DNA of 64,000 bases from Dehalococcoidia bacterium (GCA_965219085.1 OZ244720.1:2560001-2624000); one strand, 5' to 3'. Positions 1 through 18,908 are shown, counted from the stretch's first letter. The notes: generated by a model not told the origin, from the sequence alone. Translations and numbers: made by a program.

Positions 1-667
1 ATCGCCAACTGCGAACTCTGCCGCGATCGATCCGCCGGCGAGCGCGTGTCGCCGCAGTCGAGTTGGATCGGACGTGACTACGCGCCTAGAGGCGTCGCGT
101 TTTGTGCTCCAGAACCCCGTTGCGCCCCCGGACCGCGATGCATGGGCCAGGCGCGACGACGCCCTCACGCTCCTGCTACAGCAGTTCAGCGCGGAGCCAA
201 CCGCGCCGCAGTACCATCAGCTCGTGGCGGAAGTGCACGCCCAGATGCTGGGCCGCGATGATCGCAGCACCGAGGCGTGGGAGACCTGGACCGATCTGGT
301 CGGCAGGTGCGTCGAGGGTTGCCTCGAGCCAACGCATCTCGCGTGGATGAACGTGGCGAAATACCGCAGACCGCGGCAGCAGAACCTGCTTGGCGAAGAG
401 CGGAATCACGGCGTCTACCATCTGCGCGAGGAGCTTCGAGTACTGCAGCCACGCCTCATCGTGACGGCTGGCCGGGAGGCCCAGCAGGCCGTGCGCCGCA
501 TCGAGGGTGAGTGGGCTGAACCGCTCTACGTGCCACTACAGAATCCACAGCCGAGTCAGACGCTCGCAGTGTTGAGTCGGATCCAGCGCGAGCGGCTTTG
601 CCGCCGGGAGCCGACGGGCAAGAAGGCACGCAAGCGCGCCACCCACGCAAACCGAATCGGGCGGTGA
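1..667 (+). pseudogene. Uracil-DNA glycosylase (family 4-like) superfamily protein, copy 1; 5'-truncated by window edge, +1 frameshift near 100-103
   Basis: Frame 1 reads IANCELCRD..GVAF. An extra T (gcgttttgtg vs gcgttcgtg in the copy at 10832) shifts into ORF 74..667. Motifs CxxC, WMNVAKYRRP and LREELRVLQPRLIVTAG resemble UDG-F4. The indel could be a sequencing error. Confidence 0.6.
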
Positions 668-689
668 TGGCTGGACCGAGGAACTGCCG

Positions 690-1460
690 ATGTCGACACT
701 GATCGAGCACCTGCGATCCTTCAACCGGAAGGAGCGCTTCATCCTGCTCCGCGAGGCGCTCGGTAGCGACACCGTCGGCGACGCGTTCCGCCGGCGACTC
801 GGGGACTCCATTGGCAAAGCGGTGCCCGACGATGCGTTCGTCGCGATGGACTACCACCTCGACTGGCTGCAGATGGCGCTCTATCTGGCGGCCACTCCCT
901 CCCCGCCGGAGCGAATCCCCAACGACCAGCTCGTCTCCGGCAACCAGGAAGACGCCGACCTGCTCGTCGCGTTCAATGGCGACTCGACGACGCACGTCGT
1001 CCTGATTGAAGCCAAGGTGGAGGCGAACTGGACGAACAGGCAGCTCAACTCGAAGGCCGGGCGGCTCAGCCGGATCTTCGGGAAAGCCCGGCCCGGCGTT
1101 CACCTCGCAACGCCTCACTGCGTGCTGGCATCACCCGAACCGCCCCCTCCGGGCATCAGCACTGCCGAGTGGCCCGAGTGGATGAAACCGCGTGGCGAGC
1201 CGGTCTGGATGGAACTCGAACGACCTGCCGGGCTGAAGAAGCCGACGCGCTGCACGGCGCGCGGCAGGACCTCGAGGCGGGGCCGCTTCGTGCGCATCGA
1301 CTCGTTGAGCGGCGGAGACCAGCCGGAGGCGCCGGGCGTCGGTCCGCGCGAGATCCCGCACAACGGCCAGACGTACACAGTCGACGCCGCAGGCTTCGTC
1401 CTGCTGGCCTCGGGCCGGCGCGACAAGCGCTACAGGTACCCGCTCGGCAAGCGCCCCTGA
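690..1460 (+). CDS. Putative PD-(D/E)XK nuclease-fold protein, copy 1
   Basis: 256-aa ORF with GAGG RBS and QEDADLLVAF...VVLIEAK (D...ExK) motif; paralog at 11583..12353. Confidence 0.6.
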   Translation: MSTLIEHLRSFNRKERFILLREALGSDTVGDAFRRRLGDSIGKAVPDDAFVAMDYHLDWLQMALYLAATPSPPERIPNDQLVSGNQEDADLLVAFNGDSTTHVVLIEAKVEANWTNRQLNSKAGRLSRIFGKARPGVHLATPHCVLASPEPPPPGISTAEWPEWMKPRGEPVWMELERPAGLKKPTRCTARGRTSRRGRFVRIDSLSGGDQPEAPGVGPREIPHNGQTYTVDAAGFVLLASGRRDKRYRYPLGKRP

Positions 1461-1523
1461 GGACCGCCGGCGCTGCGCCCGGGTGACCACGGTGGCCCGT
1501 CAACACCGGCTCGGCACCTCCGG

Positions 1524-1950
1524 CTATCCCCGCGCCGCAGTTGATCGACTCGCCTCAGCAGCGCCGTGATGAGTCCAGACTCGATCGCTTGCGCGAGGGA
1601 GCCTTCGGCAAAGCGGTCCCGGCGGATCACCACCGTCAGGAGCCGTGCGAGGTCGAGCACGGCCGCCTGTTTGAGCATCCCGCGGTCATCCCGAAGGCAC
1701 CGAGCCTCCGGCGTCTCCGCCCACGCGGACCAATCGAAGTCGGGGCCCACCCAGCCGTCGCGATAGGCCACCTCAACGAACCGGGAGGTGAGTTCCGTGG
1801 GAGAGAACCGGGCATCGTGAAGCTGCCGGGCTCCACCTCGTTCCCACCTTGCCAATTCCCGAAGTCGGCGTCGGGGGCCTCGAAGGCCGGAAGGAGGGCC
1901 GCCAAGCCATCAAGCCGCGGTTCGGCCAGCTCGCCGCGTTGATCGGTCAA
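1524..1950 (-). pseudogene. DUF6508-like protein, frameshifted
   Basis: TTG start with GGAGG RBS. LAALLPAF..FTMP (ORF 1636..2031) switches frame near 1810 to FSPTELTSRFVEVAYRDGWVGPDFDW..RDRFAEGSLAQAIESGLITALLRR (ORF 1430..1855). A second indel lies before the TAG at 1524-1526. Confidence 0.6.
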
Positions 1951-2175
1951 GGTACGAGTCCTCCCGTGCCGCGCGCCTCGTCGGACCTCGTGGCGAACGC
2001 TTGGCGCCGCGACCGCCGCCATCCGCTCCATGCGCCATCAGGTCCATGATCGTGTCGGCGTCGTCGATCACGCTGCGGTCGGGTCCGCGCAGCCGCAGAC
2101 TATAGCGCGCCTGGGGCAACGACCATCAGGCGCGCGACCCGCCTGGCGGGCGCACTCGCTGGCGACTCCGCTCCG

Positions 2176-2466
2176 CTATCTACCGGTCGCGTCCAGATCC
2201 GCCCCGGCAGGCAGATCCCGGTCGGGGCGCACCAGGATGCCCTGTAGCCCGAGCGCCGCGGCGATCGTGACCAGTGCGTACAGGTGCCCCGAGGCGGGCG
2301 CGACGCCCCGTCGCCACTCGCGGAGCCGGTAGGGCCGGACGCCGAGCAACCGCGCTAGCGATCGCACGCCGAGCCCGGACGCCACGCGGAACTCCTCGAT
2401 CCGCTCCCCGAAGTCGTCCGGGAGGTCGGAGACGACGGGCCGATGCACCAGCGTCCGGGTCGACAC
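2176..2466 (-). CDS. XRE-family helix-turn-helix protein
   Basis: GTG start next to upstream stop; FGERIEEFRVASGLGVRSLARLLGV..LREWRRG is a Cro/C1-type HTH. Confidence 0.7.
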   Translation of the reverse strand: MSTRTLVHRPVVSDLPDDFGERIEEFRVASGLGVRSLARLLGVRPYRLREWRRGVAPASGHLYALVTIAAALGLQGILVRPDRDLPAGADLDATGR

Positions 2467-2467
2467 G

Positions 2468-2758
2468 TCAGGAACCCCCGCGTCCGTCCTGCGAGCCGCT
2501 GTCGTCGTCCCGCAGGATCGCGGCGCCGCCCGGGATGCGGTCGGCGAGCAGGAACAGCGCGGCCATCGCGAAGCCGTTCGGCAGCGTGCCCTTGCGCCAG
2601 CGCTGCAGCTGGCGCGGATCGACGCCCAGGCAGGCCGCCAGCCCATCCCAGGGAAGGCCGAGCGCCTGCTTGAGGCGAGCGAGGCGCGCCGGGAGGTCGT
2701 TCACGACGGGCGTCGCGTCGACGAACAGGTGCGACGGGGGGTAGGAGCTGCGCCTCAT
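2468..2758 (-). CDS. XRE-family helix-turn-helix protein
   Basis: LARLKQALGLPWDGLAACLGVDPRQLQRWRKGTLP; ATGA overlap with the upstream small ORF. Confidence 0.75.
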   Translation of the reverse strand: MRRSSYPPSHLFVDATPVVNDLPARLARLKQALGLPWDGLAACLGVDPRQLQRWRKGTLPNGFAMAALFLLADRIPGGAAILRDDDSGSQDGRGGS

Positions 2759-2943
2759 ACCGCGCCATCCTCCTCACCGGCCGGCTTCGTGGCGGTAGCG
2801 CTGCAGCGCGTCGACGGCGCCGCGGCCGGATCGCCGTCGGGATGGTCCATGTAGAGGTGAGGATGGGCGAGCGCGTGGCGCGCGATGATGCGGGCCAGCC
2901 GGCGCAGGCCGTCGAGGCGCATCCGCTCCCGCTCGTCGTCCAT
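2755..2943 (-). CDS. Small recombinase-associated protein (ERxRLxGLRxLARIIAR), copy 1
   Basis: 62 aa MDDERERMRLDGLRRLARIIARH..; the motif recurs at 12842..13027 and 32923..33105. Confidence 0.6.
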   Translation of the reverse strand: MDDERERMRLDGLRRLARIIARHALAHPHLYMDHPDGDPAAAPSTRCSATATKPAGEEDGAV

Positions 2944-3190
2944 CCGTGGCTGCGTATCCACACTCGTCTCCAGTGGGCGCGCCAACTGCGCCCTCGAATC
3001 GCGACCGTTCACGGAACGGCTGTCCCATGCACGTGAGCGTCCGCGATGGACGACCTCGACACCATCCCCTGCAAGGGGATTGCACGCGTGAAATGGTCTC
3101 GACCGTCGCTCCGTAGCCATGTCCGTCTCCCGCGCGCGCGGGCGGTGCCGGTGATGGCCAGCCCGCCGCGGCTGGAGTATGCTCGTGGTG

Positions 3191-3206
3191 AAACATACGT
3201 ACGTAT
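3191..3206. promoter_or_regulatory. Putative operator (perfect 12-bp palindrome ATACGTACGTAT) in divergent promoter region
   Basis: AT-rich palindrome at 3195-3206, downstream of TATGCT (3178-3183), between the HTH operon and the recombinase. Confidence 0.35.
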
Positions 3207-3369
3207 CGTAGCCCCCGCGCGGCGGCAGGGCAGTCCCTCCGACGGGCGATCGGCGCGATTCCCGGGAATCGCTAGCTGCGATGTAGCTGGAGTGCGACAA
3301 ACGTTTACAGCGGAGCCGCAGCAGGCCGGGCCGACCGGTAGATTGGCCCCGAGCGAGGAGCACGAATCG

Positions 3370-5000
3370 ATGCCAGAACGAACCGAACCCACCCCCGCCG
3401 CCCTCTAGGCGCGCGTCTCCAGCGACCGCCAGGACGTCGACCTCTCCGTCTCCGCGCAGCTCCGCGCGCTGCGCGACTACGCCGAGCGCAACGGCTACGC
3501 CGTCGTCCGCGAGTATGTCGACGAGGCGGAGAGCGGCCGCATCGCCGACCGCCCGCAGTTCACGAAGATGCTCGACGCCGCACGCGAGCCCGACGCGCCG
3601 TTCCGTGAGATTCTCGTGTGGAAGTTCTCGCGCTTCACCCGCAAGCGCGAGCACGCCGTCGCCTTCAAGTCGATGCTGCGCCGCCGCGGGATCAGGGTGA
3701 CCTCGATCACCGAGCACGCCGACGACTCCCCGACCGGCAAGCTGATGGAGGCGATCATCGAGAGCGTCGACGACTTCTACTCCGAGAATCTTGCTCAGGA
3801 AGTGATGCGCGGTCTCCGCGAGTCCGCCTCGCGCGGCTTCTGGGTCGCACTGCGCCCGCCATACGGTTATCGCAAGGTCAAGGTCCACGACGGCCCGAGG
3901 GAGCGCCCGAAGCTCGAGCTGAACCCGCCCGCCGACGGCCTGGTGCGGCGCACCTTCGAGATGGCGCTCGCGGGCCGCAGCGTGCTCGACATCAGCAAGA
4001 CGTTCAACGCCGAGGGCATTCCCAGTCCCGGGGGCAAGCGCTGGAGCAAGACGACGATCCACCAGATGCTCTCCAATGAGACGTACGCCGGCACGCTGCA
4101 GTGGGGCGTCACCGCAAAGGACGGGCTGCCGCCGGTCCGCGTCGAGGACGCCTTCCCCGCCGTCGTCTCGAAGGACGAGTTCCGGCAAGTCGCCGCCCTC
4201 CTGCGCGCGAAGGCGCCCGCGCAGGTCCACCCCCGGCGTTCCGGCAGCCCCTATCTGCTGAGCGGGCTGGTGCGGTGCCGGAAGTGCCGCCGCGCGCTCA
4301 CGGGGGCGGAGGCGAAGAGCGGGAAGTACAGCTACTACGTCTGCCAGTCCCTCTTGAAGCGGGGCAGCGGCACCTGCGAGACGCCACGCCTCAACGCGCA
4401 GCGCTTCGAGCGGCTGATCGTCGAGCAGATCCGGGAGCACATCCTCACCGAGTCCAACATCCGCGACCTCGTGCGCCTCGTCGACGAGGAGATGGACGGC
4501 GTGGCCCGAGAGGAGCGGGCAAGCTGGAGAGCGTCGAGGCCGAGCTGGCCGAGGTGCGCCGCAAGATGGACCGGCTGTGGCACGCGGTCGAGACCCCCGA
4601 CCTCGAGGTCAACGACATCCTGCCGCGGCTCCGGCAGCACCAGGAGAGTCAGGAGCGCCTCGAGGCTGCGGCCGAGGAGACGCGGAGGAGCTTGGCGGAG
4701 CGCCGCGCGGTGCTGGACAGTGCAGAGGTGATCGCAGCGTTCGCGCGCGAGATGAGCGAGTTCCTGAGGACCAGCGAGCTGACCGAATCGAAGGCGTTCA
4801 TCCGCTCCTTCGTGCAGGAGATCGCGGTGAGGCCCGGGACGGCGACGATCCGCTACACGATCCCGACGCCGCCGGACAGCCCGATCGGCGGGCGGGACGC
4901 AGCCGAGGTCGAGTTGCCAGAGGCAGTTCGCAGTACAGTCAGCTTTGGCTGGCCAAAGAAGACTGTACTGCGAACTTTTGAACTGAGCGTGGCGCTGTAA
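3370..5000 (+). pseudogene. Large serine recombinase (resolvase + recombinase + Zn ribbon), disrupted
   Basis: MPERTEPTPAAL*ARVSS: TAG at 3406-3408 replaces the Y of YARVS. Then SRFTR, YLLSGLVRCRKC and YYVC. A one-base deletion near 4517 moves the C-terminus into ORF 4101..5000. Confidence 0.9.
4925..4976. repeat. 52-bp near-perfect palindrome, attP-like site inside the recombinase 3' end
   Basis: AGTTCGCAGTACAGTC-AG-CTTTGGC-[TG]-GCCAAAG-AA-GACTGTACTGCGAACT. Confidence 0.8.
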
Positions 5001-6489: not shown

Positions 6490-6857
6490 GGCCGTGGCTC
6501 AGCCCCGAGCACCTGCAGGCGCTGCTCAGTGTTTGGCGTGCGCGGACCGCGCAGATCGCCTCGGCCCTCCGGGACCACGGACTCGCGCCGCGCGTGTCGG
6601 CGGCCAACGGGTGCCTCGTCCTCACCGAGCGCGGTCGGCCTACCGACAACCATGGCGTTCGGCCCAATATCCTTGTCGTCTTCAGCGACGAACTCGCTGT
6701 GCACCACTTCCTGCGCGTGGCGCTGGAAGAAATCGGACGCACGGGCGTTGATCTGCCGCTGCGGGTCTCGCACGCGAACCTCGTTGAGGCCGAGGGGGCT
6801 GCTAGGGGCGGCCTGGCTGACGCCTGGGAACCGGGCTTTGCGTTCGGGAGCCGCTGA
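6490..6857 (+). pseudogene. 3' remnant of a replication-relaxation-like gene
   Basis: RPTDNHGVRPNILVVFSDELAVHHFLR..PLRVSH matches the remnant at 10628-10781 and resembles the C-terminus (HEGRPPMVLFVFETE..AFLR) of 39314..41323. Confidence 0.45.
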
Positions 6858-6880: not shown

Positions 6881-7729
6881 TTACGCATCCCGCAGCTCCG
6901 GCAGCGCGGCGCGGGTACCGACAACGAGGCCGGCATCGCGCACCTGCGCGATGAGCTGTTCCCAGAGCCCGCGCAGCGTCTCGGGATCGAGGCCGCACGT
7001 CCGCTTGTGATTCTGCGCCAGCGTCCTGGTGAAGTACCGCTCGTCGAGTTCGATGCTCGGCCGCTCGAAGCCAGCATCGCGCCCGGCGCGCATGGCTGGG
7101 AAGAAACTGAACATCCCGTTGACCGGGTCGTCCCGCGTCGCTCCCCGGTAGAGCATGAGCGTCGACTCCTCGCCGTTGTCCACGAGCGGGCCGCCGGTCA
7201 CATCGAGGAAGGTGCCGGGTACCCAGTCCGCCAGCACGATGCGCGCCTCCGGCGCGGCATAGTCGACGTAGTCGGCGACGACCAGCACGGTGTCGAGCAC
7301 CCAGCCGCCTCTCTTGCTCCCGAACGCGATCACAGAGCCGCGCCCGAGGCGCCGCAGGCCGGGTCTCGTCGGCTGTAGGCAGTTCGAGTAGAGGAAGCGC
7401 TCGCCAAAGATGAACGGGTCGGTGTTGTGCAGGCGCTCATAGCCGCTCCGGGGGATCACGTAGTGCGGCATCCAGAGGTGCCTCGGGAGCCCGGGGGCAC
7501 CGGACGGGTCGAGATCGCGGATCAGGTCTGATTGGGCCTCCCACTCGCCCCACGCCCACAGGTCGCCCTCGTGGACGCGGCCGTCATCCGCGATCCAGTT
7601 GCCCTGGACCTGCATGAACTTCCGCGCGTGCCGGCTGTCGTACGTGTTCCATGGTTTCTCGCCGAGGCGATCCGGCAAGTGTTCACCGCCTGGATGCGGG
7701 AACTGCACAAAGCAGGCGCTATCGCTCAC
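6881..7729 (-). CDS. Hypothetical protein, possibly nucleotide-modification-associated (Nmad-like)
   Basis: GTG start overlapping upstream gene; motifs QFPHPGGEH, HARKF, WGEWEAQS, NTDPFIFG..FLYSNC, GSVIAFGS, LDTVLVV. Family assignment is tentative. Confidence 0.6.
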   Translation of the reverse strand: MSDSACFVQFPHPGGEHLPDRLGEKPWNTYDSRHARKFMQVQGNWIADDGRVHEGDLWAWGEWEAQSDLIRDLDPSGAPGLPRHLWMPHYVIPRSGYERLHNTDPFIFGERFLYSNCLQPTRPGLRRLGRGSVIAFGSKRGGWVLDTVLVVADYVDYAAPEARIVLADWVPGTFLDVTGGPLVDNGEESTLMLYRGATRDDPVNGMFSFFPAMRAGRDAGFERPSIELDERYFTRTLAQNHKRTCGLDPETLRGLWEQLIAQVRDAGLVVGTRAALPELRDA

Positions 7730-8486
7730 GCTGCCACGCCTCCACCACGCTCGCGCCCAGTTCGCGCTTCTGCCCGGCGGTGATCGTAAGCGGCGTCCTC
7801 CCCGCAGGACAGAAGACGAACAGCGCCCGGGCGCTGCCGACCTCGTACCAGCGCGACTCCACCTCGTAAGGGCGCCTACGGATCTCACCCCCACCTGTTC
7901 GCTCGAAGGTGTGAACGGTCTGCCACTCGCTGATGGCGTCGAATCGGATGCGATCGAGGTGGCGCCTCGCCACCGAGAGGACCACGACATGCGGCCGCAA
8001 CGTCTCCACCAGCGCGTGCCACAGGGGACCGCCGCCGCCTTCGAGCGTCGCACGCTCGGCCTCTGTGAGGCTGCTCCAGGTCGGGTTGGTGGCTACGGGC
8101 GAGCAGATGTCGGTGTGCAGGGCGGTGGAGGCCTCGCCGTCGTAGTAGCTTGCAGACGCGCCATTGAGCAGCGGCTCGAAGTGCCTGAACCAGTTGCGGT
8201 AGGGATCGGTTCGGAAGTACGCCGAGAGTGCATCAATGTAGCGACCGTCGTCCTTCGGCGTGACGCCCGCAGCGAGCGGGAACCGCCGGAAAGGGTCCTC
8301 GGCAGGAAACTCTTCCAGCGAGGGATTCAGCCCGACGGTCAGCATCCGCAGTGGCGAGGAGCGGTATGCGGCGAGGTCGCCGAAGAAGAGGATGGGGCTG
8401 GCCGGGCCCACGCGAGCTGGCAGGGCCGCAGCACGCTCGAACGCGCGCCATGCCTCATCTACCAGTTCACCGACGCTCACCTGCAT
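7719..8486 (-). CDS. UDG-superfamily-like protein (GLNPS motif)
   Basis: PILFFGD..LTVGLNPS resembles the MUG/TDG GxNP motif; LVETLRPHVVVLS matches the UDG P-x-hydrophobic strand. Confidence 0.55.
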   Translation of the reverse strand: MQVSVGELVDEAWRAFERAAALPARVGPASPILFFGDLAAYRSSPLRMLTVGLNPSLEEFPAEDPFRRFPLAAGVTPKDDGRYIDALSAYFRTDPYRNWFRHFEPLLNGASASYYDGEASTALHTDICSPVATNPTWSSLTEAERATLEGGGGPLWHALVETLRPHVVVLSVARRHLDRIRFDAISEWQTVHTFERTGGGEIRRRPYEVESRWYEVGSARALFVFCPAGRTPLTITAGQKRELGASVVEAWQRER

Positions 8487-8520
8487 CCTCACCCCTACCG
8501 CCGGCTAATCTCAGCGTCGG

Positions 8521-10233
8521 CTAGACGAAGTAGGACTCGTCCATGTCGGGATGCGGCTGAAGCGGAGTTCCGAGCAGGCGGATACCACCCGCTTCGAACC
8601 GGCGCAGCATCTCGTTCTCGTAGCACTCGTTGACGACGCTGCACTGAGCGTCGTTCAGATAGAAGGCGAAGCTCCTGACCCGATCGTGCGTACGTGCGAA
8701 TTCCTCACCGTCGACGTACTCAGCCTCGCAGCACTCCTGGAACGCACGGACCGCGGCCTCGACCTCATCCCGGTGCACCTGTGGCCGCAGTCGCGGTAGG
8801 AGGTCGACTGTGCCGTCGTCTGAAATGACGACGACGACTGAGCCTTCGGCCATGGTGCTCTGATACCGCACAGCCGAGTTGAAGCGAGAGCCCCGAGCTG
8901 GATCGCCGCGCCCGGTTGTTTCGCCGTCGAGAATCACACCAAAGGCGTGGCAGCGACCGTCTGACCCGAGTAGAATAGCCCCGTCTACGCGACCGAAGCG
9001 GACGATGTCGGCCGTCTCCAGAAACTCGGGCTCGATCGGCACAGCTTCCGCGCCGAGACGAGCAGTCTCGGCCTCGGGTTCGCCTGACACCACGAGCGTG
9101 GTGCCGTGCCCACTACCCTGTACTCCCTGAATGATCTCCCAGATACGGCCGATGTCAGCATGCCCGAGGATCCTTCGAGCGGTATCCACGAACTCGTCGG
9201 CATCGAGCAACGGCCGCGGGAGGGTTGGCTGGCCGTAGGAAACCCGCACCAGCGGGGACCCATCGACGCTCAATTCCCACACGGCGTGATCAGTCACCGA
9301 GATCTCGACTACGTCTGGAGCGGAAGGGCAGGCTCCGAGGCCGTATACACCTTCATGGTCTGCGAGCACCGCGTTCGATCCGTCGCTCAGTTCCAGCAGC
9401 TTTCGGATGCTTCTCGCCTGTCGGAGAGGGACGGGTCGTTGTAGCTGCACGCGGAGCCGGTCGGCGGTCTTCTCCCGGCGAGCGATCACGAGACGCCCGG
9501 CGGCAGCGGTGCGTTCGTAACCGAGAGAAGCGAACTCGTTCACCCAGGAGAACAGACCGGTCGGCCAAGTCGTCGCTCGGTATGCCGCTCCCTCCGCCAG
9601 TCGCGCAGCAGCGACCCTGACGATGTCCTCCGTCATGCCGAGGGGAGAGAGGTCCGCGCCGGGATCTGGTAGGTACAAGGCTCGGTCCGCACGGTGCAGA
9701 CACTCCGCGATCAGCTCGTGCTGTAACGATCGCCCAACATGGACGCGGTCAACTACTGAGTCATCAAGGGCGGGAAGGGAATCGAGTGCTGCGGTCGGGA
9801 TTCCGAGACACGTGTGCACGTGATAGCCGTCGATTGGTGCTCCGCTGCTCGCGAAGAAAGTCATTCCACCGAACGCGCGCGATGCTTCGATGGCTTCGAC
9901 GAGAGCGTCTCCACGCGATCGTCGGAATAGCTGGCGACGCCGCAAGTCATGAAGGCGGGGATCGGTGTGGAACAAGCGCGAATCCGGGTTCTCCTCGAAC
10001 AGTTCCTCCGTCCGGGCCGCGACCGCTGTCAGATTGTCGACGGTGAGGGGGCCGCCCTCGGGCTCGACACAGACCTGGTGCGCCAGACCGTCGTCAAGTG
10101 CGAAGCCCACCAGCACGACGCGCGGCTTCACCGGAAGCCCGATCGTTGCGAGGGCGCGTTCGATACCTTGTGCGACGATGATTCTGAAGTGCCGCTGGAA
10201 GCCCCACATGAACTGATCGATCGTATCGTTCAC
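8521..10233 (-). CDS. Diadenylate cyclase (DisA_N/DAC) domain protein with long N-terminal sensor-like region (DACNG-type)
   Basis: C-terminal VDGAILL..FGVILDG..RGSRFNSA..VVVISDDG are DAC motifs; N-terminal FMWGFQRHFR. Confidence 0.8.
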   Translation of the reverse strand: MNDTIDQFMWGFQRHFRIIVAQGIERALATIGLPVKPRVVLVGFALDDGLAHQVCVEPEGGPLTVDNLTAVAARTEELFEENPDSRLFHTDPRLHDLRRRQLFRRSRGDALVEAIEASRAFGGMTFFASSGAPIDGYHVHTCLGIPTAALDSLPALDDSVVDRVHVGRSLQHELIAECLHRADRALYLPDPGADLSPLGMTEDIVRVAAARLAEGAAYRATTWPTGLFSWVNEFASLGYERTAAAGRLVIARREKTADRLRVQLQRPVPLRQARSIRKLLELSDGSNAVLADHEGVYGLGACPSAPDVVEISVTDHAVWELSVDGSPLVRVSYGQPTLPRPLLDADEFVDTARRILGHADIGRIWEIIQGVQGSGHGTTLVVSGEPEAETARLGAEAVPIEPEFLETADIVRFGRVDGAILLGSDGRCHAFGVILDGETTGRGDPARGSRFNSAVRYQSTMAEGSVVVVISDDGTVDLLPRLRPQVHRDEVEAAVRAFQECCEAEYVDGEEFARTHDRVRSFAFYLNDAQCSVVNECYENEMLRRFEAGGIRLLGTPLQPHPDMDESYFV

Positions 10234-10329
10234 GCTACACCCTGCGCGCAGACTGGCGATCCAGCATCGGGGGGCCACTCTAGCACGGTGGTGGCGATGA
10301 ACCGCACGGACGCCGCAGCCCGCGCCACG

Positions 10330-10825
10330 CCAGCGGAGCCGCCAGCCGCTGTGGAACATGGGACACGCCGGCGCCGTGCACGCTTCATCGCGGCGCTCAC
10401 CACGCAGTCGCGCGCGCGGATGGGATCTCATCCAGCTCGACCCGCCCCACCGGGCGTGGCGTTACTTCCGCCGCGACAGACGCCTGCGCTCCGTGCTGCC
10501 CGACGCCTTCGCCGCCTTGCGCAGCGGGACGACGCTGTGGCCGTGCTTCGTCGAGCGAGCGCCGCGGGGTGCGGCCCTCAACGATGGCGGCGAAGCTCGC
10601 ACCCTACCAGCGCCATTACGCCACGCCCCGGCCTACCGACAAGCACGGCGCGCGGCCCGCCGTGCTTGTCGTCTTCGGCGACGAACTCGCCTCGCACCAC
10701 ATCCTGCGCGGGGGCGGGAGGAGATGGAGCGCACCGGCGTTGACATGCCGCTCCGGGTCTCCCACGCGAGCCTCGTTGACGCGGGAGTGGCCGCTGGGAG
10801 CCCGGCTCGCCCGACCTCCCTATGA
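10330..10825 (+). pseudogene. Frameshifted remnant of a replication-relaxation-like gene
   Basis: Pieces in several frames: LPDAFAALR..PCFVER, KLAPYQRHY..DKHGARPAVLVVFGDE, EMERTGVDMPLRVSH. Confidence 0.5.
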
Positions 10826-10831
10826 TGGTCC

Positions 10832-11560
10832 GTGACGGCAATCGATCGGAGCACGCCATTGGACTGGACAACCATCGTTGACGTCGAGGCGGGCATTGCC
10901 AACTGCGGACTCTGCCGCGATCGATCCGCCGGCAAGCGCGTGTCGCCGCAGCCGAGTTGGATCGGACGTGACTACGCGCCCGGAGGCGTCGCGTTCGTGC
11001 TCCAGAACGCCGTTGCGCCCCCGGACGGCGATGCATGGGCCAGGCGCGACGAATCCCTCACGCTCCTGCTGCAGCAGTTCAGGGCGGCGCCAACCGCGCC
11101 GCACTACCATCAGTTCGTGGCCGAAGTGCACGCCCAAATGCTGGGCCGCGACGATCGCAGTACCGAGAGGTGGGAGACCTGGACCGATCTGGTCGGCAGG
11201 TGCGTCGAGGGTTGCCTCGAGCCAACGCATCTCGCGTGGATGAACGTGGCGAAATACCGCAGACCGCGCCGGCAGAACCTGCTCGGCGAAGAACGGAATC
11301 ACGGCGTTCACCATCTGCGCGAAGAGCTTCGAGTACTGCAGCCACGCCTCATCGTGACGGCTGGCCGGGAGGCGCAGATGGCGGTGCGCCGCATCGAGGG
11401 TGAGTGGGCTGAACCGCTCCACGTGCCACTACAGAATCCACAGCCGAGTCAGACGCTCGCAGTATCGGGTCGGATCCAGCGCGAGCGGCTGTGCCGCCGC
11501 GAGCCGAGGGGCAAGAAGGCACGCATGCGCGCCTCTCGCTCAAACCGAATCGGGCGGTGA
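10832..11560 (+). CDS. Uracil-DNA glycosylase (family 4-like) superfamily protein, copy 2 (intact)
   Basis: 242 aa; IANCGLC, WMNVAKYRRP, HLREELRVLQPRLIVTAGREA. Canonical GEAPG and HPS motifs not seen. Confidence 0.65.
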   Translation: MTAIDRSTPLDWTTIVDVEAGIANCGLCRDRSAGKRVSPQPSWIGRDYAPGGVAFVLQNAVAPPDGDAWARRDESLTLLLQQFRAAPTAPHYHQFVAEVHAQMLGRDDRSTERWETWTDLVGRCVEGCLEPTHLAWMNVAKYRRPRRQNLLGEERNHGVHHLREELRVLQPRLIVTAGREAQMAVRRIEGEWAEPLHVPLQNPQPSQTLAVSGRIQRERLCRREPRGKKARMRASRSNRIGR

Positions 11561-11582
11561 TGGATGGACCGAGGAGCGGCCG

Positions 11583-12353
11583 ATGTCGGGACTGATCGAG
11601 CACCTGCGATCCTTCAACAGGAAGGAGCGCTTCATCCTGCTCCGCGAGGTGCTCGGTAGCGACACCCTCGGCGACGTCTTCCGCCGGCGACTCGCGGACT
11701 GCACCGGCGTCGCGGTCCCTGCAGATGCGTTCGTCGCGATGGACTACCACCTCGACTGGCTGCAGATGGCGCTCTACCTAGCAGCCACTCCCTCGCCGCC
11801 GGAGCGAATCTCCAACGACCAACTCGTCTCCGGGAACCAGGAAGACGCCGACCTGCTCGTCGCGTTCGACGTCGACTCGACGACGCACGTCGTCTTGATT
11901 GAAGCCAAGGTGGAGACGAACTGGACGAACAGGCAGCTCAACTCGAAGGCCGGGCGGCTGAGCCGGATCTTCGGCGAAGGCCGGCCCGGCGTTCACCTGG
12001 CAACGCCACACTACGTGCTCGCATCACCCGAACCACCCCCTCCGGGCATCAGCGCTGCCGAGTGGCCCGAGTGGATGAAGCCGCGTGGCGAGCCGGTCTG
12101 GATGGAACTCGAACGGCCGGCCGGGCTGAAGAAGCCGACGCGCTGCACGGCGCGCGGCAGGACCTCGCACCGGGGCCGCTTCGTGCGCATCGACTCGTTG
12201 AGCGGCGGAGACCAGCCGGAGGCGCCGGGCTCCGGTCCGTACGAGACCCTGCACAAGGGCCAGACGTACACGGTCGACGCCGAAGGCTTCGTGCTGCTGG
12301 CCTCAGGGCGGCGCGACAAGCGCTACAAGTACCCGCTCGGCGAGCACCCCTGA
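11583..12353 (+). CDS. Putative PD-(D/E)XK nuclease-fold protein, copy 2
   Basis: ATG at 11583 after GAGGAG; colinear with 690..1460. Confidence 0.6.
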   Translation: MSGLIEHLRSFNRKERFILLREVLGSDTLGDVFRRRLADCTGVAVPADAFVAMDYHLDWLQMALYLAATPSPPERISNDQLVSGNQEDADLLVAFDVDSTTHVVLIEAKVETNWTNRQLNSKAGRLSRIFGEGRPGVHLATPHYVLASPEPPPPGISAAEWPEWMKPRGEPVWMELERPAGLKKPTRCTARGRTSHRGRFVRIDSLSGGDQPEAPGSGPYETLHKGQTYTVDAEGFVLLASGRRDKRYKYPLGEHP

Positions 12354-12417
12354 GGACTGCCGGCACTGTGCTGGGGCGATGACGGCGGCCCCGTCGGCTC
12401 TGGCTCGGCACTCCCGG

Positions 12418-12845
12418 CTACCCCTCCCGCCGGAGTTGATCGACTCGCCGCAGCATCGCCGTCATGAGTTCGGACTCGATCGCTTGCGCGAGGGCGCTTT
12501 CGGCGAAGCGGTCCCCGCGGATCACCACCGTGAGGAGCCGCGCGAGGTCGAGCACGGCCGCCTGTTCGAGCGCCCCGCCGGTCATCCCGAAGGCGCCGTG
12601 CCTCAGGCGTCTCCGCCCACGCGAACCAATCCAAGTCGGGGCGCACCCAGCCGTCGTCGCAGCCGTTCGGCATCGTGCCATTGCGCCAGCGCTGCAGCTG
12701 CCGGACACCCACGCCCAGGCATCGCGCCAGCCCGTCCCATGGGACGCTACTCCGCCTTCAGGCGAGCGAGGCGCGCCGGGAGGTCCTTCACGACGTGCGT
12801 CGCGTCGACCAACAGGTGCGACGGCGGGTGGGCGCTGCGCCTCAC
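12418..12845 (-). pseudogene. Fused remnants of XRE-HTH (5') and DUF6508-like (3') genes
   Basis: A deletion joins ..RQLQRWRNGTMPNG to DGWVRPDLDW; further frameshifts; ends ..LLRRVDQLRREG*-like. Confidence 0.7.
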
Positions 12846-13027
12846 GCCGCGCCGTCGTTCCGGGCTGGCTTCTTGGCGGCAGCGCCGCGGCCTGTCGCCG
12901 ACACTGCGGACAAGTCGTCGCCGGGAGCGTCCGCGTAGAGGTGGGGGTGAGTGAGGACGTGGCGCGCAATGATGCGGGCCCGCGCGCGCAGGCCGTCGAG
13001 GCGCGTCCGCTCGTGCTCGTCGCTCAC
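12842..13027 (-). CDS. Small recombinase-associated protein, copy 2
   Basis: VSDEHERTRLDGLRARARIIARHVLTHPHLY.. Confidence 0.5.
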   Translation of the reverse strand: MSDEHERTRLDGLRARARIIARHVLTHPHLYADAPGDDLSAVSATGRGAAAKKPARNDGAA

Positions 13028-13539
13028 AGCTTGCTTCTCTACCGCCCGTCCCGCAGCCCGGCGCGCGGTCCGACCCCAATCGCCGCCCGGCTCGCAGAAT
13101 GCCTGTTCCAGGACTGTAGTTTCGGGCATGGACGACTGCAGGGCAGTCCCTCGGAAGGGATTTCACGAATGAAATGGCCGCCTTCAGGCGAGCGAGGCGC
13201 GCCGGGAGCCCCGGAGGGCGATACGGCCTGCGCGGATCCCTCGCGCCCAGTGCCCCAGTGGCCGAGCTGACAGCGGTTGCCCCGTCCCGTCCAAGAAGGC
13301 CGGCGGCCGATTTCTCACCACTAGAGAAAGGAAGGCATGACTGCTCGCCTGTCACAAACGGCGGTCCGGAGTTCCTACCCTTCCGCAGGACGTTCGCACG
13401 GCAGCCGAAGGCTGGCGGATGAGCATAGCGAGGAATCCGGTCATGGAAACGCGTCCGCCGTCGATGACATCGAGGCACAAGTCCATAACTTCGAGTCAGG
13501 AGCAACGATCCACCAGGGGTTCACGCCCGTTGGTTCCAG

Positions 13540-16500
13540 CTACTGATCGTCGTCAGTTGGGCTCCCGTCATTGGACTTGGCGAACTGGTACACGAGGCTC
13601 TTCGCTTCGGCCACACCCGATAGTGTGATGGAGCCGCGTTCCGTCGGTCGGAGTTGGTTCAGGGGATCGACGACAATACGGATGGTCGGCTGTGCATCCG
13701 CACCCTCCTCCAGGTTCGAGACAACGACCAAGAAGAAGTCGGCCGTCGTGAGCGCTCGCCGCACCTCGGAGTTCGTTAGCGTCACTTCGTTCGGTTCGGT
13801 TCCGGAGCTGACCTTCAGCTCGTAGTACTTCCCCAACTCGTCCACCGCGTCGGCACCAACACCGCGCTGGGCGCGGATGTCGGCGATCTGTTCCTCGTCG
13901 CTGCCGAGCAGCATTCTCAGAAGCTCTAGCCCTACATCCTCCTTGTCGATGTCGGAGTACGCCCGCAAAGGGGTCCTATTGCGTGGTCCGCGGGAACCGC
14001 GCTTCGGGTCGTTAAGGCTGCCGCCGCGAGCCGTCCTACCGCGACCTCCGCGCGTTCCATCCGGCGATCCCCGATCAGCGCGCCCCCTCGCGTCGACCAG
14101 CGTGAGGGACTGAGGGTCTACGAGGGTCCTGAGAGCCGTAGCCGAATAACTGGCCTCCCGGCGGTCGCGGCCATCGCCTCCGAGGCGGGGTGTCTGAGTC
14201 TTGCCAGCAGTTCCACCCGCCCTACCTCGAGGCGAGCGCTGCTTGCGGGCGGTCCTTTCCCGAAGCTCGTCTAGACGACGATCGGCATCGAGTTCTGCCT
14301 CTTCGCGCTCAGCGCGTTCGCGGGCAAGTTCGAGAGCTCGCGCTTTGATCCCGGCCTCGGCTTGGTCGCACGCAGCCCGCCACGCTTGCGCAACTAGCCT
14401 CGCTCCAGTCTTGAAGATCGCCGCGAGCGCTCTCCCGCCTCCATCAACGCGAGCAAGTACCTCGGGGTCAGTTACGAAGACCGTGCCAACGTCCGTGTCG
14501 ACCGTCGCGTCTACTCCGCATTCATACGTCTGACCGGAATCCACGCTTACGGCGAGCGTGAGCGACGGATGCACCTTCACGGCGTACGTGGCCAAGCGGC
14601 TCCAGGGCACGGTGAGGCTCTCAGCGAGTTGCGCATCGTTGCGCTGCAGGTCGTCGCGCAGTAACTCAACGGCCTGTCGAAAAAGCCCGGTCGATTCGGG
14701 GGCTTCCGTTGCGAGATCGGGCTCGACTACTACAGTCTCCTTTGTTTGGATCTCCGTAACGCGCAGCGGCGCGAGTATGGAGCGGAACTGATCAAGCCCT
14801 CCCCCGGGTTGCCAGATCGGTACACGATCGCCCAGGCCGTCGGCTAGAACCCGGTCGTTGGTCGCGAAGACAGGCCGGTCGCGCCTCCATCCCTGGCTGG
14901 TCCACAGAGCCAATCCTGCGAGTTTTCGGCGCTCGACCGTGACTCCCCGTGCGTGGTGTTCGGAGAGTGCGCGCAGTGTCTCGAGGAGGATGACCTCCTC
15001 GGTAGCGTCCGGAGCGTGTTTGCGCCGATTAGCCACTTGGCGGAGGACGTCGAGGCAGTCGCTCGGTAACGGTCGTCTGAGCCGAAGCGCGCGCCACAGC
15101 GGCTGACATCCCGCGATCGCAGGGGCGAATGCGCGAAGGTCCCGGAAGATTGGTGGTCCGAGGAGCACACTCCGAGGAGGAAGCCAACCCACATTCGTGA
15201 GCAAGAGACTGTCACGAGCGAACTCGTCTCGCAATTGATCTGCAGTCAGGTCGGAGTCGGCGACGTCACCATCGAGACCTCGTGCCAGAGCGCGGTAGAC
15301 ACGAGCCGTCTCGTGGCGCTGGTCTTCGGATGAGCCCTCATCATCGTACGAGGCATACCGGAGTTCTCGAAGCCGCGCCACCATCTCGGAACGACTGGGA
15401 TCACTCGAAACGCCAAGTGCGGTCAAGAGTGCAGGGCGCTTCGCTCGAGCGAGATCCGCATGCAAGTAGTCCGGCGAGTCGACACCGTATATCGCCTCAG
15501 TGCCGGGCGTTCGGACGCGCAATTCCGATGGCTTGCGCGGAGACCCGCCCTCATCGTCAAGCCAAGCAACATCGCCGGCTTGCAGGAGCCAGAAGGCTGG
15601 GATCTTCCCCGTCGTCACCCAACCATAGTTCGCAGCCGCAGCATCGACCTGTGCGAAGTCGCTCAACCGACGGTTCCACGCTCGCCCGAGTGCCGCGAGC
15701 ATGGCGCTGGCCCTCTCTCTCCGACGCTTGCCTTGCTGCTCACTTGCAATGTCGCTGATCACCGCCTGGAGGTCAGGACTGTCGTGGTCTTGGAGCGTGT
15801 ACTCGGCGCCTCGTTCCCGCAGAGCTTGGAAGCGAGTAGACGGCGCACCGGACACCCGAAGGTGTACACCGCGCCGCACATCCCTCTGGTAGCTCTTGGT
15901 CCGGTGCGGGTGCGATCGGAGTCGCGGTGCCGTTTCGGCACCCAGCAATCGGAGGAAGCCAAGGGCGCCGAGCCCCTCGCGCCCTGCGTCCGAGCGGAGA
16001 GTCCTGGAGTAGCTGTCGCTGAGCCACATGATCCTCCAGGATTCACCTGCTGCAACAGCGAAACTGTCACGTTCTCGATCGATCGTCCGGGGCAGGTAAG
16101 CGTCGGCAGGCCGAGCGGAAGCGACCCGTCGCCCGCCGTTACCGTTGTAGTCGTATCTGTACGACTCGAGCCGAACCGCGCGACCGACATCAGGCCCCAG
16201 CTTCTCAGCATCGCGGCGATCGAGACGCTCGAAAGCACCCCGAAGCGCCTGCACCTGCTCGTCCGTGAGTTGGCCGCCAAGGGAGCGCCCAGCCCGCCCT
16301 GCCTCGGCGAGACGGCGTACCACTTCCCCATCGTCGGAACCGTCGAGCAGAGCGCCGCACTCCTGCAGCCAATCCAGTACCTCCGGAGCGCCGTTCTCTT
16401 GGGCCAAGTGGGCAGGGTGAATGAGCGTGGTTACGCCGAGTCGCTCCGCGAGCGGTGTAGTCGATACGGCGACGGCTGACGTGGATGCCCGCGCCGGAGG

Positions 16501-18087
16501 AACGATCCGGCGTCCGTCATGAGCGATCACGCAAGGGAGTTCGAGCAAGCGTGCTGCGAGACCCTCTCGCAGCGCGGCCGCGACGACCCCGATTGTCGAT
16601 TCGATTGGGCGCGCCTTATCACTCACGACTTCGAGCGCCTGTTCCACACTGACAGTCGTGGGCAGATCAGCTCGGTGGCTCCGCCAGTCCTCGAGTACCA
16701 ACCGCCACCTTCCAGCGCGATCCCGGACGTCGCTTGGGAGCGTAGCGGTAAGGCCGGCCAATCTTGCGGTCTCCGCTTCATGCAGGAGTTCTTCTAGCGG
16801 CTGTGCCTCCACCGCAAGCCTCGACAAGCGAACATGGCCTTGTCCACGCACCGGGAACGCCAACCGGGATGCCACGACTCTTCTGGCGTTCTCCAGGATG
16901 GTGGTCTCAAGCGTCTGGACCACACCCGAAGCAACCTCGCCCTCGGAAGGAAGTGGGAGTGGCATTGCGTGCCAGGCAGCCTGGGGATCACGACCGAATA
17001 GATCGAGCACCGCCTCTGTCCAAACCTCCGCGACGAGGCGCGCGAGCGCTTCGTTCCACTTCGAGTCAGCGAAGTCTGTCCGGCTGGTGAGCGGATCGAA
17101 CTGGGCGTTCGCGAAGAGCGGTGCACGTATCGGGGTGACAGGCAGCCCTGCGTAGACTTGGCCCGCGTCAGTAGGCCCAAGCGGTAACGCCACTGCAACA
17201 GGAGTCGTAGGATCTGTTGCCTTCTCTGCACGGTGGAGGCCGGGAGGGCTGGGTACGTCTGCGCTGTAGACGGCCCAAGTACGCCCGTCTGTTGTCTCCG
17301 CGTGCCCTCGCGCTATTCGGGACGGGCCCGATGCTAATCCCACGTCACCGTCTTGTTGGCGCGAGAGTGCGAGTTGGCCAATCTGACCACCTTCAAGGTC
17401 CAGCAATGTGACGCGACCTACATGGCGAAGGAACAGCAGCGCTGAGTCGTCCCAGCGATCAAGCCACTCCTTGAGTTCCGACGCTTGCAGCGTCCCGGGC
17501 TGTAGGGGGATCCGGAGTGTCGTCCAGCCTGGCTGACCGAACTGCGGCGGCAGTTCGCGCATCTCGACGGGTGCCACTGTTGGTTCGCCGATCTGGATGT
17601 GATAGGGGGCGCAGTGCACCTCAAGCGTCGTGGACAACGATCGCAAGGTTGCGAGCCCAATGCCGAACCGCCCTATGGTAGCCGCCTCACCGGCCTTAGT
17701 GCTCAGCCATGGGGTCGCCAAACTGAGCACGTGCCGGAGCCGTACCGGACTGCCGTTATGGCTCGCCAGCAGATCGGTAGGCCTCAGTTGGAAGCGTACC
17801 TCCGAAGCCTCTGCATCGTCGGCGTTCTGAATGATCTCAGCGAGGCCTTGAAGCCGATTCGCTGAGAGGAGGCTCCCGCTACTGCGGGCTGCGCCCAGTG
17901 CCTTCGCAATCGAACCGGGAAGTTCCTCGAACAACTTACCAAGGCGCTGGACCGCCGCTCGGGCCTCCGGAACGGTGCTGGGTTCGAAAGAGGGGGCATC
18001 AGAGGCGAGCTTCGGGTCGAAGACTTGCTCGGCAGCCTCAACGGCGAGCTTGATCCGGTCGATGTCGCTGCCCGGTGTTTCTAGCAT
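13540..18087 (-). CDS. Sacsin/NOV-like GHKL ATPase fused to C-terminal DUF3883-type nuclease
   Basis: N-terminal AEIIQNADDA..SHNG..IGRFGIGL; C-terminal EDVGL..GVGADAVD..YYELKVS..LTNSE. Confidence 0.8.
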   Translation of the reverse strand: MLETPGSDIDRIKLAVEAAEQVFDPKLASDAPSFEPSTVPEARAAVQRLGKLFEELPGSIAKALGAARSSGSLLSANRLQGLAEIIQNADDAEASEVRFQLRPTDLLASHNGSPVRLRHVLSLATPWLSTKAGEAATIGRFGIGLATLRSLSTTLEVHCAPYHIQIGEPTVAPVEMRELPPQFGQPGWTTLRIPLQPGTLQASELKEWLDRWDDSALLFLRHVGRVTLLDLEGGQIGQLALSRQQDGDVGLASGPSRIARGHAETTDGRTWAVYSADVPSPPGLHRAEKATDPTTPVAVALPLGPTDAGQVYAGLPVTPIRAPLFANAQFDPLTSRTDFADSKWNEALARLVAEVWTEAVLDLFGRDPQAAWHAMPLPLPSEGEVASGVVQTLETTILENARRVVASRLAFPVRGQGHVRLSRLAVEAQPLEELLHEAETARLAGLTATLPSDVRDRAGRWRLVLEDWRSHRADLPTTVSVEQALEVVSDKARPIESTIGVVAAALREGLAARLLELPCVIAHDGRRIVPPARASTSAVAVSTTPLAERLGVTTLIHPAHLAQENGAPEVLDWLQECGALLDGSDDGEVVRRLAEAGRAGRSLGGQLTDEQVQALRGAFERLDRRDAEKLGPDVGRAVRLESYRYDYNGNGGRRVASARPADAYLPRTIDRERDSFAVAAGESWRIMWLSDSYSRTLRSDAGREGLGALGFLRLLGAETAPRLRSHPHRTKSYQRDVRRGVHLRVSGAPSTRFQALRERGAEYTLQDHDSPDLQAVISDIASEQQGKRRRERASAMLAALGRAWNRRLSDFAQVDAAAANYGWVTTGKIPAFWLLQAGDVAWLDDEGGSPRKPSELRVRTPGTEAIYGVDSPDYLHADLARAKRPALLTALGVSSDPSRSEMVARLRELRYASYDDEGSSEDQRHETARVYRALARGLDGDVADSDLTADQLRDEFARDSLLLTNVGWLPPRSVLLGPPIFRDLRAFAPAIAGCQPLWRALRLRRPLPSDCLDVLRQVANRRKHAPDATEEVILLETLRALSEHHARGVTVERRKLAGLALWTSQGWRRDRPVFATNDRVLADGLGDRVPIWQPGGGLDQFRSILAPLRVTEIQTKETVVVEPDLATEAPESTGLFRQAVELLRDDLQRNDAQLAESLTVPWSRLATYAVKVHPSLTLAVSVDSGQTYECGVDATVDTDVGTVFVTDPEVLARVDGGGRALAAIFKTGARLVAQAWRAACDQAEAGIKARALELARERAEREEAELDADRRLDELRERTARKQRSPRGRAGGTAGKTQTPRLGGDGRDRREASYSATALRTLVDPQSLTLVDARGRADRGSPDGTRGGRGRTARGGSLNDPKRGSRGPRNRTPLRAYSDIDKEDVGLELLRMLLGSDEEQIADIRAQRGVGADAVDELGKYYELKVSSGTEPNEVTLTNSEVRRALTTADFFLVVVSNLEEGADAQPTIRIVVDPLNQLRPTERGSITLSGVAEAKSLVYQFAKSNDGSPTDDDQ

Positions 18088-18205
18088 CACACACTCCGGC
18101 CGGTTGGGCGACCAACTGACGTTGCGGGCTCAGGGATTCGAGCACCGCCATGGTGGCAAGCCGGAGGCGGTGCTCGGAGTGCACAGTCCTGCGTCATACC
18201 TGACC

Positions 18206-18870: not shown

Positions 18871-18908
18871 TCCTCATCCTTCCTAGCTTGGCGGCTTTCC
18901 CAGTGCGG

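Follow-up and report, generated by a model that had tools for sequence, protein, structure and literature searches.

A Brig3-BapA-like candidate glycosylase pair and an orphan DS-2C/CdaG-type diadenylate cyclase, probably two separate modules, in a defense island of a Dehalococcoidia bacterium

Brig1 is reportedly a single-gene defense system, a glycosylase of the uracil-DNA glycosylase (UDG) superfamily directed against phages with modified DNA. Two other described systems, the glycosylase operon Brig3-BapA and the cyclase-containing system DS-2, are the closest to the locus reported here. This locus is located at positions 6881–10233 of a stretch of 64,000 nucleotides (nt) from a Dehalococcoidia bacterium (GCA_965219085.1 OZ244720.1:2560001-2624000; genome completeness 92.7%). 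The whole stretch is referred to as the window, and positions are those of the window unless genome coordinates are indicated. The locus contains three genes, A, B and C, which encode a diadenylate cyclase, a protein with a UDG fold, and a putative PUA/ASCH-like protein.

Brig3 is a UDG-superfamily glycosylase that excises 5-hydroxymethylcytosine (5hmC), according to the available portion of the preprint by Mejia-Pitta et al. (10.64898/2026.02.25.707755). The bapA gene overlaps brig3, and the BapA protein was modeled as an ASCH-like double β-barrel, with ZmASCH as the closest structure. Glucosyl-5hmC is deglucosylated by BapA, which makes it accessible to Brig3. The operon is situated in a defense island, just downstream of a type II-E CBASS (an anti-phage signaling system based on cyclic oligonucleotides). 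As far as the same text goes, Brig3 is functional in E. coli both alone and together with BapA, without any cyclase, and the two proteins do not co-purify. Residues N50, E55 and W100 of Brig3 are each essential by mutation, the D127N mutant is inactive, and D101 is the essential catalytic Asp of BapA. Further defense glycosylases of the UDG superfamily are presented in the accessible part of another preprint (10.1101/2025.10.29.685425).

DS-2 is a validated system that consists of a phospholipase, a cGAS-like enzyme and a cyclase of the same type as A (PMC13092281). In the part of that report available, defense is abolished on mutating the predicted catalytic residues of the cyclase, and 15 of 30 homologs are located beside CBASS while 15 are found without it. 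Purified DS-2C enzymes of other species make cyclic di-AMP (c-di-AMP, as 3'3'-c-di-AMP), in the available text of a preprint on these enzymes (10.64898/2026.08.10.743927). The family is named CdaG in a companion preprint (10.64898/2026.08.10.743972), and the accessible text of both describes DACNG and DACNH as proposed sensor domains with an unknown ligand.

The three open reading frames (ORFs) of the locus are all on the minus strand, in the order A, B, C, as determined from the ORF listing and the sequence. The product of gene A (8521–10233; GTG start, 570 residues) is a CdaG/DS-2C-type diadenylate cyclase, soluble and composed of DACNG, DACNH and DAC domains, and no CBASS partner accompanies it. 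Gene B (7719–8486; 255 residues, ATG start at 8486) encodes a protein with a UDG-superfamily fold, a Brig3-like candidate DNA glycosylase. Gene C (6881–7729; GTG start, 282 residues) encodes a putative PUA-like/ASCH-like β-barrel, a BapA-like candidate base-modifying enzyme. The gap between the stop codon of A (8521–8523) and the ATG of B (8486) is 34 nt, and the start of C (7729) overlaps the end of B (7719) by 11 nt. An earlier description of the locus from its sequence alone (the sequence-only reading) had given this same arrangement of three co-oriented genes, and it is confirmed here. The N-termini of A (MNDTIDQFMWGFQ) and C (MSDSACFVQFPHPG) agree with those of their homologs, and the start of B also fits the homolog N-termini. 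With matches at E ≤ 0.001 to 439 (A), 1104 (B) and 682 (C) database clusters, these are real genes and not chance ORFs.

The locus is best described as two independent defense modules that adjoin in one variable segment of a mobile defense island, an orphan DS-2C/CdaG-type cyclase (A) and a Brig3-BapA-like glycosylase pair (B-C). We give this reading a probability of about 0.65. It is favored over a single system of three genes because of the co-occurrence of the genes, their copy numbers, the neighbors of A and the codon composition. The surroundings of B were surveyed in 80 reference-genome loci, taken from 136 relatives, with flanks of up to 8 kb on each side where the contig allowed, and A is present in none of them. 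The survey of A covered 80 metagenome loci, from 441 relatives, and neither B nor C is present in any of them (E ≤ 1e-3); more than 1.5 kb of sequence is available downstream of A in only 49 of these 80 loci and upstream in 44. The genome itself has three B-C pairs (100%, 74% and 60–67% identity) and a single copy of A, and two of the three pairs lack A. Recurrent neighbors of the A relatives are a patatin cluster (7 of the 80 loci) and a SMODS-like cluster (5 of 80); the contexts are otherwise variable, and most of the loci have neither cluster. Among four plasmids examined, patatin and nucleotidyltransferase genes are next to the cyclase in two and absent in two, and B or C is nearby in none. 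The GC content at third codon positions (GC3) is lower in A (0.716) than in B (0.816) or C (0.869).

That A is a DACNG-type diadenylate cyclase, as the sequence-only reading had it, is supported by Pfam and NCBIfam, and its family is now tied to phage defense in the available part of the DS-2 report (PMC13092281). The Pfam domains DACNG (PF21752, E = 4.7e-46, residues 9–212) and DACNH (PF21750, 9.1e-17, residues 226–323) are both found above their cut-offs, followed by DAC (PF02457, 9.4e-8, residues 369–478) with 32.1 bits against a cut-off of 27. This is the soluble DACNG-DACNH-DAC architecture of about 550–590 residues that characterizes CdaG/DS-2C. The alignment with the NCBIfam model NF053872 ('DS2_3_antiphage') covers the full length of the model (residues 5–568 on positions 1–576), with a score of 538.2 bits that falls below the equivalog cut-off of 630 bits. 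There is no match for A in PADLOC or PHROGs, and neither the profile of A nor its DAC domain matches a PDB sequence.

The active-site motifs are present in A. The DGA motif (D417-G418-A419) is intact, and R450-F451-N452 (RFN) is the family version of the RHR motif, both as previously noted. Residues D417, G418, A419, R447, G448, R450 and S453 are invariant in A and 31 relatives, and N452 is at least 90% conserved. All 58 columns that are invariant in the 31 relatives are retained in A, including DGA and R-x-N. In an alignment of seven sequences reaching down to 29% identity, R450 and N452 are again invariant, and the motif reads RGSR[FYL]NS. Two of the aligned genes have patatin and nucleotidyltransferase genes as neighbors: one, on a Citrobacter plasmid, is directly downstream of them, and the other, from Gluconobacter, adjoins such a pair. 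Judged by these alignments, RFN is not peculiar to A and is conserved across the CdaG family, including members beside CBASS. The substitution had earlier been taken as a hint of a product other than c-di-AMP. There is no basis for expecting a different product, because the motif is family-wide and c-di-AMP is the product given for DS-2C enzymes in the available text (10.64898/2026.08.10.743927). By analogy, A probably makes c-di-AMP. A canonical DAC protein (144 bits) is also encoded in the genome, and the DAC domain of A could not be aligned with it by BLASTP or hhalign. Because this alignment failed, RFN is equated with RHR from the Pfam domain match together with the context of the motif. 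Matches to A are sparse in the phylum, with one partial match among 400 other genomes sampled, and two relatives are found in viral contigs.

No match to SMODS (PF18144) is found anywhere in this genome of 92.7% completeness (E ≤ 0.01). An adjacent CD-NTase and phospholipase, as expected for DS-2, were not found either; A is instead neighbored by B, C and a UDG-like gene. Consistent with this, A could be what is left, in decayed or inactive form, of a DS-2-type CBASS locus whose CD-NTase and effector have been lost, with no function of its own. This possibility concerns A only and is compatible with the presence of two modules. The score below the equivalog cut-off is in its favor, and the gene does decay, as in four near-identical metagenome loci where a relative 63% identical to A is frameshifted into ORFs of 161 and 477 residues. 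However, the ORF of A is full length and uninterrupted, and it has kept 58 of 58 invariant columns. Moreover, lone members are common, both on the plasmids (two of four) and in most of the 80 metagenome loci, as well as among the published homologs (15 of 30 without CBASS in the available part of PMC13092281). We consider it unlikely that A is such a remnant.

In the four loci with the frameshifted relative, the two ORFs are followed on the same strand by conserved ORFs of 373, 325 and 817 residues, none of which matches Pfam and which may represent a further set of partners of the A-type cyclase family.

In the two-module reading, A would be a separate CdaG/DS-2C-type cyclase, probably producing c-di-AMP, without the CBASS genes (CD-NTase and effector) that accompany about half of its relatives. 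It could serve as a stand-alone sensor or signal generator, or be a leftover. Either way, A adds a further clear example of DS-2C-type enzymes that occur without CBASS, and it sharpens the question of what such enzymes sense and what they signal to.

The protein encoded at 7719–8486 had been proposed to have a UDG fold, and this is borne out by Foldseek and VIA-align searches with a predicted model. The AlphaFold2 model of B, computed from 34 sequences, has a predicted local distance difference test score (pLDDT) of 83.6. Foldseek finds only UDG-superfamily structures, with UDG family 4, SMUG1, TDG and UdgX at probabilities of 0.96–1.0 in the first ten matches. The best match in VIA-align is 4zbx, with a Z score of 12.4 and a root-mean-square deviation (rmsd) of 3.4 for 176 of 192 residues, and the next 33 matches are all UDG (family 4) or UdgX, with Z scores of 9.6–12.4. 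The GLNPS motif noted earlier is present as G52-L-N54-P-S56. Residues N54, E59, W99 and D126 are invariant, and Y96 and A173 are at least 90% conserved. The profile of these 34 sequences has no match among PDB sequences at E ≤ 10, and viral contigs contain no relative of B. In the ESM Atlas, the nearest clusters of B are unnamed; UDG is annotated on 11% of one cluster (score 0.93), which serves as a lead only. Assignment of B to a classical repair UDG family (PF03167 and the NCBIfam UDG models) was considered and rejected, as there is no profile match and B has no more than the fold in common with these families.

The AlphaFold2 model of C has a pLDDT of 79.3. Foldseek gives no match at E ≤ 0.001, with probabilities of at most 0.44. 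In a comparison with 48161 representative PDB chains, only 34 reach a Z score of 2 or more, and nearly all of these are PUA-like readers or enzymes of modified bases. The top match is ZmASCH (5guq), a weak one (Z score 5.6, rmsd 4.8, 137 aligned residues), followed by EVE proteins, the EVE-HNH enzyme VcaM4I, YTH domains and McrB N-domains. Each of these matches is weak, and the list is consistent, so C is predicted to be PUA/ASCH-like. In 37 sequences, H12, W27, H34, W60, W63 and W86 are invariant, in agreement with the earlier description of C as a protein with Trp and His motifs. The motif N102-T103-D104-P105-F106 is also invariant. The profile of C produces only chance-level RPB5 matches among PDB sequences (E ≥ 0.099). 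In the ESM Atlas the nearest clusters are again unnamed, and Nmad3, annotated on 26% of one cluster (score 0.86), is likewise only a lead.

B and C form a self-contained two-gene unit, because they are adjacent in many loci, occur as three pairs in this genome, and exist in fused forms. A full-length C is located directly downstream of B in 36 of the 80 reference-genome loci, at offsets of −7 to +20 nt. A partial C is found in 6 loci, and C is absent in 38, all of which have at least 900 nt downstream of B. The C family has 1716 representatives at 50% identity, and 17 long forms were checked among the best 150 of them. They include six B-C fusions, one C-B fusion and one TIR-C fusion, and TIR is the only extra domain detected by Pfam in the 17 proteins. 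Frameshifts between overlapping genes could have given rise to some of the B-C fusions as artefacts, which is not an explanation for the C-B order or for a form with a linker of 240 residues. In the TIR-C fusion (441 residues), the TIR domain (2.1e-25) is N-terminal to the C-family domain, which suggests that a C-type fold can serve as the sensor for a TIR effector.

The relatives of B are widely distributed. Their identity to B is 48–72%, and the titles of the 80 loci name at least six phyla: Chloroflexota/Dehalococcoidia (25 loci), Acidimicrobiia and relatives (13), Acidobacteriota groups (13), Alphaproteobacteria (12), Gammaproteobacteria (6), Binatia (2), Thermodesulfobacteriota (1), Longimicrobiales (1) and others (7). 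This spread points to horizontal transfer. Among the nearest large ORFs beside B, 21 of 99 match PADLOC (E ≤ 1e-10), and these are distributed over 16 of 52 loci; this count covers the first 99 of 154 chosen ORFs and is given with no control set. The matches include HmaA, DpdF, ShosA, dGTPase, DRT, PDC-S01 and PDC-S11. Three of the 80 titles are sponge-associated candidate taxa (Ca. Poriferisodalis, Ca. Poriferisocius and Ca. Spongiisociaceae), and records OZ250169.1 and OZ242033.1 have two copies of B each.

Recognition of modified phage bases by a glycosylase, as suggested in the sequence-only reading, is the best reading of the B-C pair. In the proposed mechanism, the UDG-fold glycosylase B would flip a modified base out of phage DNA and excise it. 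The target would most likely be a 5-hydroxymethyl-pyrimidine such as 5hmC, and the resulting abasic sites would block phage replication. C, as an ASCH/PUA-like enzyme, would flip the same kind of base and remove a further decoration such as a sugar, which would turn hypermodified phage DNA into a substrate of B.

Several observations weigh against the reading of the locus as a Brig3-BapA-like defense pair next to an independent cyclase. B has no match in Pfam or NCBIfam at E ≤ 1 and none in PADLOC or PHROGs, and C has no match in any of these four databases. The structural matches of C are weak (best Z score 5.6), and the homology of B and C to Brig3 and BapA is based on fold, residue spacing and gene order, not on sequence alignment. 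One copy of B-C in the genome (genome coordinates 1642888–1646416) is positioned between murJ and ileS, more like a housekeeping location. A murJ-like gene is 60–80 nt upstream of B-C in this copy and in four Dehalococcoidia metagenome-assembled genomes (MAGs), an arrangement that reflects either synteny conserved within a single lineage or a site that insertions prefer. Other such observations link A to B-C. The 34-nt gap between A and B, on the same strand, contains no promoter- or terminator-like site, by a scan that is a weak test and uninformative in high-GC DNA. Two copies of a direct repeat delimit a segment that A, B and C together fill exactly. A second A-B junction, the only other one seen, is found on a contig of 692 nt from another sample (about 92% identity), which is not independent evidence because it comes from a close relative. 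Finally, in the available text of the preprint, a type II-E CBASS is directly upstream of brig3 (10.64898/2026.02.25.707755), which could hint at a recurrent pairing.

The first group of observations would fit a B-C pair that is not for defense at all, a housekeeping or self-directed nucleic-acid pair that repairs a damaged base or removes base modifications from the cell's own DNA or RNA, in which case its location next to A and within defense islands would be incidental. Repair and RNA metabolism commonly make use of UDG and ASCH folds. The absence of B from viral contigs and from PADLOC and PHROGs, and of C from 38 of the 80 loci, would fit as well. So would the murJ context, with murJ next to the pair on the upstream side in 4 of the 80 loci, all from Dehalococcoidia MAGs that are probably interrelated. 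However, the family is patchy, multi-copy and 50–65% identical across at least six phyla, as is typical of mobile defense genes, and PADLOC genes are frequent neighbors. The copy in the window is among TmtA, restriction and PIN genes and a recombinase, and the second copy in the genome is beside IS21, a TPR-GreAB-C-PIN gene and another UDG-like ORF. In addition, the TIR-C fusion exists. The number and spacing of the conserved residues of B follow Brig3 and not the classical UDG motifs, and B is matched by neither the Pfam nor the NCBIfam UDG models. A housekeeping role for B-C is, in our view, quite improbable.

The second group concerns the suggestion in the sequence-only reading that the three genes form one system, in which recognition or excision of modified bases by B and C is coupled to second-messenger synthesis by A. 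For example, A might sense abasic sites or glycosylase-bound DNA, in the way that DisA, which scans the integrity of DNA, senses lesions, or the signal made by A might control B and C. Co-transcription of A and B is likely here, because they have a same-strand gap of 34 nt with no promoter- or terminator-like site between them, and the three genes may move as one cassette. A related strain, found in another sample, has retained the junction. The proposed sensor function of DACNG and DACNH, and the location of the published Brig3-BapA operon just downstream of a cyclic-nucleotide system, are in line with this suggestion, as far as the available texts go (10.64898/2026.08.10.743927; 10.64898/2026.08.10.743972; 10.64898/2026.02.25.707755). 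Against this, the co-occurrence is 0 of 80 from either side, the two further B-C pairs in the genome are without A, neither B nor C is near any of the four plasmid relatives of A examined, and the composition of A is unlike that of B and C. No recognizable nucleotide-receptor domain is present in B or C by Pfam and structure searches, and Brig3 works in E. coli without a cyclase in the available text (10.64898/2026.02.25.707755). The earlier account had named co-occurrence as a check, and had held that its suggestion would fail if the genes never co-occur elsewhere, which is essentially what was found. A single system linking base recognition to signaling is unsupported and highly improbable, and as a new claim it does not stand on the present evidence. 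Least probable of all is that a lone DS-2C-type cyclase was recruited to a Brig3-BapA-type pair in this lineage, its DACNG and DACNH domains detecting the action of the glycosylase (abasic sites, stalled repair intermediates) and c-di-AMP being raised or dropped as a second layer of response.

The direct repeats that bound the three genes have copies at 6636–6809 and 10600–10830, both on the plus strand. The left copy, of about 170–200 nt, is 79% identical to 10600–10830 and reads as the 3' part of an ORF. The right copy, upstream of A, is a frameshifted version of this ORF fragment. Further copies in the same orientation are found just before the start of the window (genome coordinates 2559676–2559878, 87%) and about 14 kb past its end (2637916–2638109, 78%). 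The four copies of about 200 nt (78–87% identical) partition the region, and one of the resulting segments corresponds exactly to A-B-C. This layout suggests that elements accreted in tandem at a single site, or that the region is a hotspot for cargo. Loose contig ends are present just beyond the stop codon of A in two sequencing runs. A joint from 6992 to 10485, which would bypass the entire cassette, is covered on its shorter side by no more than 22 letters of a single contig and was not used.

By its gene content, the region around A-B-C is a defense island. A Tiamat TmtA homolog of 1516 residues (13540–18090, minus strand; PADLOC PDLC03968, 1506.9 bits, full length) is followed by a PIN-domain gene (18206–18877, minus strand; Pfam PIN, 3.6e-20) and a type III restriction-enzyme-like gene of 987 residues (18909–21872, minus strand; PADLOC REase_III, 7.9e-172). 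On the other side is a large serine recombinase (3568–4731, plus strand; Pfam Resolvase, Recombinase and Zn_ribbon_recom). All four genes are within 12 kb of A-B-C, and 13540–21872 is a stretch of lower GC content (0.61–0.65).

The window also contains a second kind of UDG-like gene with a conserved partner, distinct from B-C. Positions 1–3250 and 10895–13160 are direct repeats of about 80–94% identical DNA, each with a gene matched by a UDG Pfam model and a gene for a protein of 256 residues. The two copies of the UDG gene (2–667 and 10832–11560) encode proteins 89% identical to each other, as do those of its partner (690–1460 and 11583–12353; 89%), which belongs to no known family. A distant relative of this UDG gene (25% identity, E = 9e-5) comes after the second B-C copy in the genome, at positions 9773–10654 of that locus. 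Elsewhere in the window, a scan of ORFs and GC3 detects a very long open frame of about 4500 codons on the plus strand (43116–56711; GC3 0.89).

Compared to described cyclases, A is closest to the DS-2, DS-2C and CdaG enzymes. It shares their three domains, their length of about 570 residues and the full-length NF053872 alignment, and it has the DGA and RGSR[FYL]NS motifs of the plasmid homologs beside patatin and nucleotidyltransferase genes. In contrast to DS-2, there is no CD-NTase or phospholipase adjoining A or elsewhere in the genome; the score is 538 bits against the cut-off of 630, and the identity to the plasmid members is 29–30%. DisA and CdaA have in common with A a DAC domain with DGA. 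The DAC domain of A, however, is very divergent (32 bits), with RHR replaced by R-F-N, and the N-terminal domains are different.

B-C resembles Brig3-BapA, as described in the available text (10.64898/2026.02.25.707755), in having two overlapping genes, a likely operon in the case of B-C, the first of which encodes a glycosylase of the UDG superfamily, a candidate one in the case of B. The second protein was modeled as ASCH-like for BapA and is weakly predicted to be so for C, ZmASCH being the closest solved structure for BapA and the top PDB match for C, and both pairs are in a defense island directly downstream of a cyclic-nucleotide system. Residues N50, E55, Y97, W100, D127 and A174 of Brig3 agree in type and spacing with N54, E59, Y96, W99, D126 and A173 of B; the N-E spacing is 5 and the W-D spacing 27 in both, with the Brig3 numbering taken from the published text and not from a sequence alignment. 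The catalytic D101 of BapA corresponds to the invariant D104 of C (in N-T-D-P-F) by position only. There are also differences. The wedge residue N225 of Brig3 has no clear counterpart, with Arg or Gln at position 230 in the corresponding loop of B. Brig3-BapA is from a soil environmental DNA (eDNA) clone, while the B-C genome is of high GC content and its relatives are mostly marine MAGs. The sequences of Brig3 and BapA are not among the PDB sequences searched with the B and C profiles. Taken together, these likenesses argue strongly that B-C is homologous to Brig3-BapA. If this is true, one eDNA clone characterized in 2026 represents a large unannotated family, with no Pfam, NCBIfam or PADLOC model, present in at least six phyla, with as many as three diverged copies in a genome and with forms that are fused or linked to TIR. 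Its members would offer natural variants with which to ask what modifications of phage DNA are recognized by pairs of this kind, and their spread argues for new family models in defense annotation tools.

Brig1 and the other defense glycosylases of the superfamily share with B the UDG fold and the defense-island context, and with its proposed role the use against modified-DNA phages. The pocket of Brig1 is formed by Q81, W122 and Q147, as quoted in the available text of the Brig3 preprint (10.64898/2026.02.25.707755). B differs from it, and is like Brig3, in having Glu and Asp there.

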